NCBI RefSeq assembly: GCF_013167455.1
Contig: NZ_CP038328.1
DNA: 64,000 nucleotides
Reading direction: 5' to 3' (one strand)
Source: Escherichia coli O157:H7
GTDB lineage: Bacteria; Pseudomonadota; Gammaproteobacteria; Enterobacterales; Enterobacteriaceae
How positions within the stretch are numbered: position 1 is the stretch's first letter; the number at the start of each line of letters is the position of its first letter. The position numbers are program-made. Positions 24,001-30,000 of this stretch are shown here, piece after piece.

Positions 24001-27000
24001 CGATGAACTGACCTGTATGACAGCGCGAATTAACCGTGGTGAGACGATACCTGAACCAGTAAAACAACTTCCTGTTATGGGCGGTAGACCTCTAAATCGT
24101 GCACAGGCTCTGGCGAAGATCGCAGAAATCAAAGCTAAGTTTGGGCTGAAAGGAGCAAGTGTATGACGGGCAAAGAAAGATTCTTCGTTACTTGAAGAAA
24201 TACAGTGTTTATTGTTCTTTTGAGATGTTGCGAAAACAGGAATTACCACGGTAAACATTTTGTAGCTGACCCATGCATTGATGAAATATTGTGGGTATTT
24301 AATAGAGCATAATTATCAAGTTGCGTAAGATGTGGAGTAATGGTATGGGCGGTGTTAGCACCGCCTTTAATTAAAGCTCAGAAAGCTGTGATAATATTTT
24401 TTCTGGAGTGGTTTCGTTGGAAATGCTAAATAATACAGCACCTTTGACTGATTCATCTCTCATTTCAATTTCACATGAATTATGGTTGTATGAGATTGCA
24501 TAATTTTTTAATGTTCTTTCGCTTTGCCACCACACCATATTTGCAAGACTTCCGTTATACGTTCTTATCTCGATTGATCCGGGCAGGGCTTTCCAGATAA
24601 CACCTCCTAGCAATGTAAGAGCGGCTGCACCAACATTTTTTGCATGATGGTTAGAACGTTCCATTACCCCTTCAGCATAACGATGAAGAATCTCTATGTC
24701 AGTCGCTTTGATAGTCATGTTATTTCCATGTAATTGCTGTGTGAAACGTAGTGTTAGTTAGGTGTTAGCAGAATATAGCATCAAAGTCGAAACCGGTAGA
24801 AAAAATATTGGTGATTATTTCGCTGCATTTGGAACTGGAACAACAATGATTATTAGCATGATTGCTTTTTCCAGTCATAAGAATGAGTCGTGTTAATTTT
24901 TTCTATTCAATAGGAAATTATCATGTCATCAGAATATGAACAACTACGGTGACTTCTGCGCTAAACGGGGACGTTTATGCGCACATACAATCCAAACTCT
25001 CTTCTCCCTCCACAGATGCAGAAATACACCTGCGATTTTTTGCATTCGGTGTTTTTGGCAGCCAAGAACAGGGAGTCTCTGTTTGTCTGGCGGCTAAAGG
25101 TGATATGGAAATCGTGATGTCTTAGCCTAAAGTAGTTGCAACAGTTGGAGCGATTATGGTGGTAGTAGTGATCATCGCGCCCCCCATATGCAAGGGTTGA
25201 CGACATTATTTATCCGGCGCTATATTCTGTGCGTTGCCGCAAAATCGGCACACGGGATTGGCGTCCCGGACATCAAAACGACGCATAACCGCGTTCGCGG
25301 TTTTTTTATGCGCAGTGCACGTCTACACAAAAATTATGGTGGGCTGTGTGAGGGCTTCTTCGGAAGCGCCGGATTTCGTTTTGACCGGTTACGCCAACCT
25401 TGCACAGTCCACCACCAGTCGATTGGCGTCGTCGGTGGTGATAGCTCAAATTCAAAACGAGATTATCGCTATGGTCACTCAGCTCGCATTCCGCGATGTA
25501 AAATTCACTCCTATAAATCACAACAACCAGATCTGGTTTACCAGCAAAGAATTGGCGGCAGCATTAAAATATGCCAGCACCAAAGCAGTAACCGACATCT
25601 ACAACAAAAATATTGATGAGTTTACTGACGGAATGTCTCAGGTCGTCGAATCAACGACCTCAGGAAATTATCGTAAGAAGACTCGCATTTTCTCCCTCCG
25701 TGGCGCCCATCTGATCGCCATGTTCGCCCGCACTCCTGTGGCCAAAGAATTCCGCCGCTGGGTGCTGGATATTCTTGATCGAGAAATTCAACAATCCCCA
25801 ATCACAAAACAATTCACTGATAACGAACTTTGCACACTTGCTTGGTTATGGCGGGCAAGTGACACAATGTTAACCGCTTGCCAAAACGTCACTCCGCTTC
25901 TTCAGGTAGCAGAACACCGCGAAGCCGGTCGCTTCACTTCAATCGAACAAGAATATCCCCGGATACTCAATAAGGCACAGGCAATCCTTGCCAGAGAAAC
26001 GGCACATGTAAAATTCCGGCCGTGGCAGGATGATAAGTGGAGTCGAGTATTGACGCATTTACGTTCTGAACGGCTGTAATAAAGTTGCGGGAGAGAAATG
26101 CCGCTAGTATTTTGTAATTAATTGAATGCTGACGGTTTAATGAGAAGTCAAGAACACTACTTGTACTATAATCGTTCGATGTTAGTGAGGGTTTGATGCA
26201 AAAAATGAAGTGATTGACCCTAAATTTGCGCGATCAGCGACAGATTGTACACCGAGATCCTGTGGGCTGGAATTTGCAGAGAAATACCGAAAATGATATC
26301 CAATATTGTTTTCAGTTCCTACATCATACCTGATAAGGGTATAATCATAAAAATTAGGATAATTCAAGTTATAATTGTATGAATAAAAACGACCTTGAAG
26401 CATTATCTGACACTAGGCTTAATGAGGCCAAATGCTTGCTTGATCATGGCTTTTTTCATGGTGCATATTATCTTTGTGGGTATGCAGTTGAATGTGCATT
26501 GAAGGCCTGTATTGCCAAGTCATTTTTACAACATGAGTTTCCAAACAAAAAAGTCGTAAATGATTCATATACTCATGATTTGTCGCAACTTCTCAAAATT
26601 GCCAACTTACATCAAATTTTGATTGCTGACGCAAAAAATGATGTTTCGTTGGAGATTAACTGGTCGGTCGTTAAAGACTGGAGCGAGCAATTTAGATACG
26701 ACAATAACATAAGTAAAGCTATGGCCGAACAATTGTTTGATGCTGTAGGTGACCAAAATTCTGGAGTTTTGAAATGGGTAAAAGCACACTGGTAATCGGC
26801 AGAGAGTTGACAAAAGATATGGAATTCTCAGGTCAATTTTTGTTAAAAAAACTCAAGTTACAGAATTTAACTATTGATGCTGCAATGTGGTTTTATTACC
26901 CAGATCTATCTTGGAGATATATTTTAGTTATCAGTGACTTCTCAGAACGTGGGCCGGCAGAAATATATAGAAAAATCAGTGAGATAAATAGAAATAGCAT

Positions 27001-30000
27001 ATCAAAAAAGTATAAGCCGATACCATTAGAAGCAATTGAGGCTAAGGGGGATTCAGCTTTTGTTTATAAAATGTTAAAAGGATTTGCTAGAGTCAACGAT
27101 GGTAAAGTTCGCGTTTCTAATTCTATGGTAAATGGTTTAGAAATCGTTGACTGTCTGATCTATGAGTTAAAATAAGAAATCTCTTACTGGGTATCATTAT
27201 TGTTTAAATGACTTTTGATTTTCAATAATCAACTTGTCATAATTAAGTCACCGGAGTTTGAACTCCTCCGGTGACTTCTGCGCTAAACGGGGACGTTTAT
27301 GCGCACATACAATCTAAACTATCTTCTCCCGTCACAGATGCAGAAATGCACCTGCGATTTTCTTTATCCAGCGTTTGACCTCTGCGGAGGTGAAGCGTGA
27401 ACCTCCCACAAGACGGCATCAAACTGCATCGCGGTAACTTCACCGCTATCGGTCAGCAGCTCCAGCCTTATTTGGAAGACGGCAAGTGCTTTCGCATGGT
27501 GCTTAAACCGTGGCGCGAGAGACGCAGTCTTTCCCAGAATGCACTTAGCCACATGTGGTACAGCGAAATCAGTGAATACCTTATCCGCAGGGGGAAATCG
27601 TTCGCTACCGCAGCATGGGTAAAAGATGCTCTCAAACACACATACCTCGGTTATGAAACCAAGGACCTGGTTGATGTCGTAACCGGCGAAATCACTACTA
27701 TCCAGTCGTTACGCCATACCTCCGATCTTGATACCGGAGAGATGTATGTCTTCCTGTGTAAGGTTGAAGCCTGGGCGATGAATATTGGCTGCCACCTGAC
27801 TATTCCGCAGAGCTGCGAGTTCCAGCTGCTGCGCGACAAGCAGGAGGCGTAATGGCTACACCGCTTATTCGTGTCATGAACGGACACATCTACAGAGTAC
27901 CAAATCGTCGTAAGCGTAAGCCTGAGCTAAAACCATCCGAAATACCAACACTGCTCGGATATACCGCCAGCCTGGTTGATAAAAAATGGTTGCGACTGGC
28001 AGCAAGGAGGAATCATGGCTGATTTGAGAAAAGCAGCGCGTGGTCGCGAATGCCAGGTAAGAATCCCTGGCGTATGCAATGGCAACCCTGAAACGTCTGT
28101 ACTGGCACATATCCGGCTGGCTGGACTGTGTGGCACCGGTATTAAACCGCCAGACCTTATTGCCACCATTGCCTGTTCTGCCTGTCACGACGAAATCGAC
28201 CGCCGCACGCATTTTGTCGATGCTGAGTACGCAAAAGAATGCGCGCTGGAAGGTATGGCGAGAACGCAGGTTATCTGGCTGAAAGAGGGGGTAATCAAGG
28301 CGTGAATACCTACAGCATCACATTACCCTGGCCTCCGAGCAATAATCGCTATTACCGCCATAATCGCGGGCGCACGCACGTCAGCGCAGAGGGGCAGGCA
28401 TACCGCGATAACGTCGCCCGAATCATTAAAAACGCAATGCTGGATATCGGCCTGGCTATGCCTGTGAAAATCCGCATTGAGTGCCACATGCCGGATCGCC
28501 GTCGCCGTGACCTGGATAATCTGCAAAAAGCCGCTTTTGACGCACTCACTAAAGCAGGTTTCTGGCTGGATGATGCTCAGGTCGTTGATTACCGCGTTGT
28601 GAAGATGCCTGTTACCAAAGGTGGGAGGCTGGAACTGACCATCACCGAAATGGGGAATGAATGATGTTTGAGTTTAATATGGCAGAACTTCTTCGCCACC
28701 GCTGGGGGCGTCTGCGCTTATATCGTTTCCCCGGTTCTGTTTTGACCGATTACCGAATACTGAAGAATTACGCCAAAACCCTGACAGGAGCAGGAGTATG
28801 AAGTCAGAGATAACAATCAACTAATACTGTTTTGTTGATTTTTGCTTGTAATTGGCGTTCTGGTCTGATTTTTGTGGAGTAAGTTGATGCGTGATATTCA
28901 GATGGTTCTTGAGCGTTGGGGAGCGTGGGCGGCTAATAATCATGAAGATGTGACCTGGTCGTCCATTGCCGCCGGTTTTAAGGGACTGATCCCCGAAAAA
29001 GTAAAATCACGCCCGCAGTGCTGTGACGATGATGCGATGGTGATATGCGGGTGTATAGCCCGCCTTTACCGGAACAATCGCGATCTGCATGACTTGCTGG
29101 TTGATTATTACGTGTTGGGGGAGACGTTCATGGCGCTGGCACGGAAACATGGGTGCTCTGACACCTGTATAGGTAAACGCCTTCACAAAGCGGAGGGGAT
29201 TGTTGAAGGCATGCTGATGATGCTGGGAGTGAGGCTTGAGATGGATCGGTATGTTGAGCGTGAATTGCCGGGAGGGAGAACCTCTGTATTTTATCAGCGA
29301 AAAAATAGTTTACGATCGTAAAAATCTGCATATCATGATAAGAGTGGTTACATTGCCACGCTGCTTAACCCGCCGATGCGCGGGTTTTTTTGTACCCAGA
29401 ATCCTGTGAGCTATACGGAAAGTACACAGAAAGGAAGGTGCGACCACAATTAATAACAAAATCTTAAAAATTGCACATGGCACTATTAGTTTTCTAAATA
29501 TTGTGTATTTTTTGTATTGCAGGATGACCCTGTAACGAAGTTTGCGTAACAGCATTTTGCTCTACGAGTTTGCCAGCCTCCCCCAGTGGCTGGCTTTTTT
29601 ATGTCCGTAGCGTCAAAGCAGCAATGTCGCTGGGGCGTCGTGCAATTGGCGTTGAGCTGGAGACTGAACGTTTTGAGCAGACGGTCAGGGAAGTTCAGGA
29701 TTTAGTCAGTCAGAACGGATGATATTGCAGGATTAGTTACGTACCGTTATTATCCTGCGCCCGGCCCTTTAGCTCAGTGGTGAGAGCGAGCGACTCATAA
29801 TCGCCAGGTCGCTGGTTCAAATCCAGCAAGGGCCACCATATTACATACCGCTATTAGCTCATCGGGACAGAGCGCCAGCCTTCGAAGCTGGCTGCGCGGG
29901 GTTCAAGTCCCCGATGGCGGTCCATTATCGGTATTCAGCGTTGTTAGCTCAGCCGGACAGAGCAATTGCCTTCTAAGCAATCGGTCACTGGTCCGAATCC

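Follow-up and report, generated by a model that had tools for sequence, protein, structure and literature searches.

Duplicated nin-operon leaders around an antirepressor and HEPN-gene block in a lambdoid prophage of Escherichia coli O157:H7

Two leader copies between P and ninB

The DNA considered here, called the window throughout, is a 64,000-nt stretch of Escherichia coli O157:H7 (NCBI RefSeq assembly GCF_013167455.1, contig NZ_CP038328.1) that carries a lambdoid prophage in which two direct copies of one sequence bracket a 2.3-kb block of genes between P and ninB (ybcN). The copies, at 24949-25041 (copy A) and 27271-27363 (copy B), differ at 6 of 93 positions in pairwise alignment, so the repeat pair reported in an earlier note on this DNA is real, at 93.5% rather than the ~95% identity given there. 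The longest perfect identity between them spans 46 nt (24947-24992, equal to 27269-27314), and beyond the 93-nt core the homology continues at ~60-65% for ~55 nt leftward and ~15 nt rightward. A repeat search joined 24893-25054 to 27215-27376 at 81% identity with a spacing of 2322 nt, and a leader profile built from 113 related sequences (nhmmer) found copy A at 24891-25055 (E 2e-35), copy B at 27211-27401 (E 2e-48), and no further match in the 64-kb window. Apart from this pair, all direct repeats in 23000-29500 are of 24 nt or less, and by our calculation the chance expectation of a 93-nt match with six mismatches in 64 kb is far below 1e-30. E. coli strain 155 (CP018237) carries the identical arrangement (100% identity), and among 5,426 complete E. 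coli genomes, 175 have the occupied allele, defined as the whole P-to-ninB segment at 80% coverage or more; because strain 155 and these 175 genomes share it, the arrangement is not an assembly artefact. The HEPN-gene pair of the block, the leader, and ybcN occur together in 189 genomes.

By its sequence, the repeat unit is the promoter and leader that precedes ylcH-ybcN (ninB) in lambdoid phages of the phage 82/DLP12 type, and copy B is an intact nin-operon leader. Its 93-nt core ends 33 nt upstream of the ybcN GTG start, which agrees with the placement of copy B directly before ninB in the earlier note. Copy B has a promoter-like site and a predicted fold of three hairpins, H1 to H3 (–44.9 kcal/mol, z –7.18 against shuffles), with the 33-codon orf33, the counterpart of ylcH in E. 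coli K-12, starting in the second hairpin and containing the third. The ylcH stop overlaps the ybcN GTG start (GTGA), and the two genes are therefore translationally coupled. The same sequence in the phage 82 record X92588 is annotated with a putative –35, a –10, an inverted repeat described as a “possible regulator-binding site,” a ribosome-binding site, orf33, and orf151, and the phi80 annotation names the inverted repeat of the leader IR4. Copy B further resembles the single-copy leaders in phi80, HK639, HK225, and DLP12-like prophages.

Between the copies lie the Bro-N antirepressor-like gene and the AT-rich two-gene operon that the earlier note had placed there, together with features of an RNA-controlled antirepressor module (Table 1). 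The isrK and C4 matches, both above the Rfam gathering thresholds and followed by a Bro-N/P22AR antirepressor, liken the module to isrK-orf45-anrP of Gifsy-1 and to the immI region (c4-icd-ant) of P1 and P7. In Gifsy-1, a short RNA from the same promoter as the antirepressor operon unlocks antirepressor translation (PMC4825925). The likeness is incomplete, in that the Gifsy-1 locus adjoins antQ whereas the window module lies between P and ninB, and the a1/b1 target match in the window is below threshold. About 140 nt from copy A to the isrK promoter-like site (25055-25196) are conserved with the left-copy loci of the phages IdasGreatGrand and PhiR26_1. A 29-nt arm at 25150-25178 is 83% complementary to 28339-28367 inside rusA, probably by chance. 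In the AT-rich pair, the HEPN protein has a weak PADLOC candidate match (PDC-M28A, E 1.8e-7), and its 133-aa partner has none in Pfam, NCBIfam, or PADLOC. The pair resembles HEPN-minimal nucleotidyltransferase (MNT) toxin-antitoxin systems in its HEPN domain and differs from them in its partner, for which no MNT match was found.

Table 1. Features of the P-ninB region and the prophage Red genes, in window coordinates (ORF, open reading frame; PGAP, Prokaryotic Genome Annotation Pipeline; SD, Shine-Dalgarno sequence; CDS, coding sequence)
Feature	Position	Strand	Evidence
Prophage Red genes exo, bet, gam	16509-18270	-	PGAP annotation of CP018237
115-aa ORF, left flank common with the empty-site allele	24371-24718	-	phrog_5959, E 1e-80, unknown function; WP_000152742.1, identical in NJS001 and STEC799
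Copy A, decayed ylcH-ybcN leader paralogue	24891-25055	+	nhmmer E 2e-35, alignments, fold
46-nt identical block, crossover interval of the empty-site allele	24947-24992	+	Mismatch list
ylcH' remnant, 46-codon ORF	24977-25117	+	ORF list; first ~22 codons common with ylcH
Promoter-like site of isrK-like transcript, TTGACG-18-TATATT	25197-25226	+	Consensus scan; analogy with PisrK of Gifsy-1
c4 a1/b1 target match, weak	25220-25272	+	Rfam c4-a1b1, 40.6 bits, below gathering 46.7
IsrK-like RNA	25235-25307	+	Rfam isrK, 64.1 bits against gathering 50
Terminator-like site of IsrK-like RNA	25287-25302	+	Terminator scan
C4-type antisense RNA	25332-25419	+	Rfam C4, 82.5 bits against gathering 45
Antirepressor gene, Bro-N and P22AR C-terminal domain	25471-26079	+	PGAP name; PHROG anti-repressor (Ant) families, E to 1e-55
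HEPN-domain gene, first of AT-rich pair (33-37% GC)	26379-26795	+	Pfam PF05168, E 1.7e-5; phrog_5737
133-aa HEPN partner, 22-nt overlap with HEPN gene	26774-27175	+	phrog_5760, unknown function
Copy B, intact leader	27211-27401	+	nhmmer, promoter/terminator scan, fold, covariation, phage 82 annotation
Copy B promoter-like site, TTGATT-17-CATAAT with TG	27215-27243	+	Consensus scan; sigma-70-like
Copy B hairpin H1	27245-27277	+	Predicted fold
Copy B hairpin H2, SD in loop, ylcH AUG in 3' arm	27279-27305	+	Predicted fold
ylcH (orf33), 33 codons	27299-27400	+	PGAP CDS WP_072097617.1; phage 82 orf33
Copy B hairpin H3, GAAA loop and U-run, within ylcH	27331-27366	+	Predicted fold, terminator scan
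ybcN (NinB/Orf family), first large nin-operon gene	27397-27852	+	NCBIfam PRK09741, 276.8 bits; phrog_72 NinB/Orf

Occupied and empty alleles

The product of a crossover between copies A and B can be written out in silico by joining 24500-25041 to 27364-27800, and we searched this 979-nt recombinant against the complete E. coli genomes. Two of them, NJS001 (pig, China) and STEC799 (human, China), matched it over its full length in one ungapped piece; the 170-odd cassette-bearing genomes match it only as halves. Both genomes have the same P, the identical 115-aa protein that flanks copy A on the left (for which PADLOC, NCBIfam, and Pfam gave no match), one ylcH with a product identical to that of copy B, and then ybcN-ninE-ybcO-rusA-ylcG-Q. 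The leader of this empty-site allele follows copy A at every discriminating position as far as 24992 and copy B from 27269 on, without any mixed position, and the allele equals the window exactly over 23876-24992 and 27269-27413. A single switch from A to B inside the 46-nt identical block is the signature of one reciprocal exchange there. The suggestion of module exchange or loss between duplicated leaders, with a single-copy, cassette-free allele to be found elsewhere, is upheld by this clean hybrid, A on the left and B on the right.

We consider it likely, with good confidence, that the locus is a duplicated nin leader between whose copies homologous recombination deletes or swaps the 2.3-kb cargo, that is, a case of ordinary lambdoid mosaicism. 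The direct orientation of the copies and the presence of a perfect 46-nt block within 93 nt at 93.5% identity argue that homologous recombination would delete the block. Homology of this extent is adequate for RecA and especially good for a lambda-type Red system; either host RecA or the Exo and Bet proteins of the prophage could recombine copies A and B, and the Red genes in the same prophage are plausible candidates for driving an exchange between the repeats over homology as short as ~50-90 nt. Red-beta-type recombinases use short, diverged homology to build lambdoid mosaics. The same leader homology would also let co-resident lambdoid phages acquire or swap the block. At an earlier stage, phages recombining with one another illegitimately or unequally would have brought the antirepressor module (isrK/C4-ant), with its trailing cargo, to a position downstream of a leader, leaving copy A behind.

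Copy A is a decayed version of the leader. Its –35 has changed from TTGATT to TTAATT and its –10 from CATAAT to AATTAT, and the consensus scan that calls one promoter-like site in copy B calls none in copy A. About six substitutions in the 5' arm and loop edge of H1 break pairing, and H3 carries a G>A change; H2, the SD sequence, and the AUG are retained. The predicted fold (–25.2 kcal/mol, z –1.78) has lost H1 and H3, the latter at –5.6 kcal/mol compared with –10.5 kcal/mol in copy B, and in the CP018237 annotation PGAP treats ylcH' (24977-25054) as a pseudogene, “incomplete; missing C-terminus.” Left copies with the same right-hand junction as copy A occur in IdasGreatGrand and in PhiR26_1 and its IMG/VR counterpart L029, with decay at other sites: the SD sequence (GGGGA>GGTGA) and start codon (ATG>ATA) in the former, the H3 stem (CTGCG>CTACG) in the latter. 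Because copy A has lost H1, H3, and its promoter hexamers and the orthologous left copies have lost other parts, we read copy A as a recombination scar, still able to provide homology, rather than as a second working leader.

The right half of copy A and its junction with the downstream DNA (...GCATTCGGTGTTTT...GGCGGCTAAAGGTGATATGGA) are common to the left copies of IdasGreatGrand and PhiR26_1/L029, which dates the two-copy state to a time before the lineage of the window. Within the 46-nt block, copy A equals copy B exactly and the IdasGreatGrand left copy has several differences; from ~24995 onward, copy A equals the IdasGreatGrand left copy exactly. This mosaic of matches, first to copy B and then to IdasGreatGrand, suggests an earlier gene-conversion tract.

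The decay of copy A also bears on the direction of the event. In the empty-site allele, the degraded –35, –10, and H1 of copy A stand directly before its only ylcH-ybcN, and defects of this type are absent from the other single-copy leaders among 113 unique aligned sequences. NJS001 and STEC799 are most likely deletion derivatives, as judged from comparison of these sequences, because the hybrid keeps the decayed left half of copy A and because the two-copy state is older. Comparison of P-ninB junctions thus turns up the single-repeat allele that the earlier note had proposed as a possible ancestral state, and that allele is probably derived, since it retains the decayed promoter/H1 half of copy A.

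Several points weigh against this account. Its support is comparative, and no recombination product has been directly observed. The prophages with the empty site differ from the window in their flanks as well: identity is 98.6% to the left and 97.8-98.0% to the right, and ybcN diverges from 27414. Because they are not isogenic with it, the direction of the event has to be judged by the argument from the decayed leader; occupied alleles with a right flank nearer the NJS001 type do exist, for instance in JL05 and MB06171 at 99.0%. The deletion is seen in only 2 of 5,426 genomes and must therefore be rare or counter-selected. The abrupt fall in identity at 24946/24947 could reflect selection on H2 and ylcH' rather than a gene-conversion tract. 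Finally, a single-crossover insertion, from a circular or a linear donor, into an NJS001-like ancestor gives the same sequences as a deletion.

The last of these points opens the way to a reading in which the empty site came first and the window allele was produced by insertion. One crossover within the 46-nt block would have joined the empty site to a donor running from the right part of A through the cargo to the left part of B, and the repeat would record an acquisition rather than a loss. In sequence, the two directions are formally indistinguishable, and 175 occupied alleles against 2 empty ones is the imbalance expected if the cargo were beneficial once acquired. Insertion requires, however, an ancestor whose sole nin leader already had the degraded –35, –10, and H1, a state not seen in the other single-copy leaders examined, and it sits poorly with the sharing of the right half and junction of copy A by the left copies of other phages, which places the two-copy state before the window lineage. 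We therefore think an ancestral empty site unlikely.

Other leader loci and competing explanations

Duplication of the leader around cargo is not confined to the window. Leader-based retrieval supplied about 240 IMG/VR loci, which were surveyed for a two-copy arrangement, and three further loci were found in which two leaders bracket cargo. One of these, L029, is of the PhiR26_1 type. In L181 the cargo is a gene for a 178-aa membrane protein, and the left leader copy runs to the ylcH stop. In L095 (6814-11919), two full-length leaders bracket ~3.9 kb containing a 380-aa ORF, a 620-aa ORF with a C-terminus that by eye is like a colicin-E-type DNase, and an 84-aa ORF that may encode an immunity protein; the right-hand leader there precedes a 271-aa Cys-rich ORF, not ybcN. 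The junctions and cargos of the L181 and L095 duplications are unlike those of the window type, and leader duplications bracketing cargo have arisen at least three times independently, the window type included. Other prophages hold PD-lambda-1 with Rha, BstA, emrE-ybcK, or an alpha/beta hydrolase at the P-ninB position.

The leader is also found ahead of unrelated single genes. At L151:7620-8000(-) and L198:10160-10560(+), the promoter, H1, H2, and first codons are fused to a hydrophobic ORF of 70-76 aa that is followed by a strong intrinsic terminator. With the leader standing ahead of differing genes in these loci, it is therefore a portable expression module. The L151/L198 fusion is a moron-like unit that reuses the leader. 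In a further rearranged allele, L005:2745-5063 (E. coli UTME-14), an IS3-family element takes the place of the replication genes, copy A, and the antirepressor module and stands directly before the HEPN pair, leader, and ybcN.

This portability lends something to the proposal that both copies in the window are functional leaders under selection, with copy A a promoter, attenuator, or small-RNA unit serving the antirepressor cassette rather than a recombination scar. The promoter-H1-H2 module does precede other genes in L151, L198, and L095; at least three cargo lineages retain a left copy; and copy A still has H2, the SD sequence, the AUG, and a 46-codon ORF. Yet the promoter hexamers of copy A are gone, neither its H1 nor its H3 folds any longer, the orthologous left copies are missing other essential parts (the SD sequence and AUG in IdasGreatGrand, the H3 stem in PhiR26_1), and the antirepressor module has a promoter-like site and isrK/C4 control of its own 150 nt downstream. 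We regard a working copy A as rather improbable. The idea of a regulatory leader copied before different genes, raised when the repeats were first noticed, thus holds for the element family, as L151, L198, and L095 illustrate, and does not seem to hold for copy A, which is structurally decayed.

None of the antirepressor, HEPN, and partner proteins matched a recombinase in PHROGs, NCBIfam, PADLOC, or Pfam, the repeat search found no terminal inverted repeats at the cassette edges, and no att-like core was found; the recombination is therefore homologous rather than site-specific. The block may be called an excisable cassette only in the sense of general homologous recombination, not of site-specific excision, and a transposon or integron reading was rejected for want of a recombinase and terminal inverted repeats. 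A cassette of integron, IS, or satellite kind that moves by site-specific recombination, with the repeats as its att or target-duplication sites, is accordingly a very improbable reading of the block: direct repeats do flank a discrete, compositionally distinct block with a precise empty site, but the supposed site is 90-190 nt of leader present as a single copy in hundreds of phages, the copies are diverged with flank identity decaying gradually and no core edge, the junction positions differ among the other two-copy loci, and Ant, HEPN, and a protein of unknown function bring neither an integrase nor a transposase.

The locus is a well-documented instance of a known phenomenon, lambdoid mosaicism at a conserved boundary. 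Mosaic evolution through homologous recombination at conserved junctions, relaxed recombination of the Red-beta/Rad52-like kind included, and morons are established for lambdoid phages, as reportedly set out in the module theory of Susskind and Botstein and by Juhala et al. (2000), Clark et al. (2001), and De Paepe et al. (2014). The window fits that pattern in three respects: a short conserved boundary sequence flanks the accessory genes to left and right, alleles with this cargo coexist with empty and otherwise-filled ones, and the prophage encodes Exo, Bet, and Gam. It differs from the typical mosaic in that the junction itself is a structured promoter/leader, duplicated in tandem, and in that a natural recombinant is documented with the crossover placed within a 46-nt interval. 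It offers a clean natural example of accessory-gene gain and loss in lambdoid, Stx-type prophages. The genes concerned are an antirepressor capable of setting off induction and a HEPN pair that is a candidate for a defence or toxin function; the recombination substrate is narrowed to 46 nt, and alleles with this cargo, with none, and with other cargo are all available.

A structured leader and the surrounding prophage

The more interesting by-product of the comparison, and a modestly novel side result, is that the leader is structured and shows strong covariation. The ylcH-ybcN leader occurs at about 250 loci besides the window (e.g., L001, L003, L013-L258). Conservation of the –35 (TTGATT) and –10 ((C)ATAAT) reaches 90% or more across a set of 113 unique leaders. 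In MAFFT alignments, H1 and H2 fall out of register between sequence classes, and because of this misregistration we used loop-anchored segments of fixed length and our own counts of H1 pairs. In 54 unique sequences, H1 has 80% standard pairs compared with 56% in shuffles (0/500), and 170 cells altered on both sides compared with 71 (0/500); registers slid out of place all give 47% or less. The UGAAC core of the H1 loop is invariant in all 54, and the frequent G.U pairs in the stem point to a + strand RNA. For H2, where pairs were counted for the inner six, pairing is 100% in 13 haplotypes, with both-side changes at all six pairs and a covariation score of 0.752 against 0.195 in shuffles (0/500). 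Its loop holds the SD sequence GGGGA, and the ylcH start codon lies in the 3' arm.

The nucleotides of the third hairpin are near-invariant from E. coli to Enterobacter and Klebsiella phages: CAG-A-UGCA-GAAA-UGCA-C-CUG followed by a U-run. In copy B, its stem of 10 pairs includes two 1x1 internal loops and is capped by GAAA; the predicted energy is –10.5 kcal/mol (z –3.9), and UUUUCUUU comes next. As a terminator it scores weakly in the consensus scan, and the U-run is interrupted in seven relatives. The initial search pattern had fixed H3 and was blind to variation in it; when the search was repeated with an H1/H2 anchor, variants appeared in which the GAAA loop is replaced by UUAGCG or UUAACG with the stem retained, altering the peptide from QKC to LSG or LNG, and one variant has a compensatory pair (CAG/CUG to CCG/CGG). 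Retention of the stem despite the loop swap, together with the compensatory pair, argues for a constraint on the RNA rather than on the peptide.

Several catalogued elements were considered as counterparts of the leader. No Rfam 15 family matched at E of 1 or less over copy A (24891-25055) or copy B (27211-27401), and a search of the accessible literature on the ylcH/ybcN leader, a ybcN-linked prophage small RNA, and the ninB hotspot gave nothing specific to this locus. Among the Hfq-bound EcOnc small RNAs of O157 Sakai, the candidates checked within Table S2 of Tree et al. (2014), EcOnc11 (Sp10) and EcOnc32 (Sp3), map to late or moron regions rather than to ybcN.

The possibility that H1 is a boxB-like N-utilisation element was set aside, since its loop is conserved among phages whose N proteins differ and also in HK639, a phage with RNA-based antitermination. 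The lambda terminator tR2 has the same position just upstream of ninB and is an intrinsic terminator where the leader has H3 and its U-run. The 82/DLP12-type leader has no sequence similarity to tR2; its putative terminator hairpin lies inside the translated 33-codon ORF, and unlike tR2 it has a conserved promoter and two further hairpins upstream of H3. A further parallel may be the short pR'-tR' transcripts of lambdoid phages (6S RNA, StxS; PMC7547250), which likewise pair a conserved promoter with a terminator-like hairpin within ~120 nt, upstream of regulated genes. By analogy, such an arrangement in the leader would yield a short RNA unless read through. The leader differs from them in lying at another locus, in having no evident Q-binding element, and in containing a translated ORF.

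From these features, we can form a tentative picture, possible but short of an even chance, in which the leader is an undescribed, widely conserved, and portable riboregulatory leader whose duplication seeds recombination-flanked cargo slots. It would act as a promoter-proximal attenuator, with YlcH as its leader peptide and with H3 overridden by ylcH translation or by antitermination. One of these, ylcH translation or N-type antitermination, may decide readthrough into ybcN...rusA...Q and hence the expression of late and Stx genes, and the default output may be a ~115-nt RNA released where there is no readthrough. The leader stands where transcription would enter the nin-Q segment, and its conservation extends from E. 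coli to phages of Enterobacter and Klebsiella. Should it prove to be a true attenuator or small-RNA unit, a checkpoint upstream of Q would have been overlooked.

The rest of the prophage supplies some observations in their own right. It is integrated at mlrA (yehV), with int at 11319-12605. In the immunity region, a gene for a SIR2-family protein (19140-20744, minus strand), probably a defence moron, lies beside a cI-like repressor (20855-21547). Downstream of Q, where no stx gene was found and a methylase fragment and then a DUF6645 ORF occur, 29763-30378 contains three tRNAs followed by STnc100 (30124-30316, 160.7 bits) and, on the minus strand, the anti-small-RNA AgvB (30317-30378, 96.5 bits). 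Farther on, the gene for the terminase large subunit is split into 36294-37298 and 47717-48847 by a ~10.4-kb element encoding a tyrosine integrase (37463-38701), a helix-turn-helix regulator, BRO-N and Icd-like proteins, a primase, SSB, and a prohead-protease/capsid fusion, and this element resembles helper-embedded satellites of the phage-inducible chromosomal island (PICI) type (PMC10111431).

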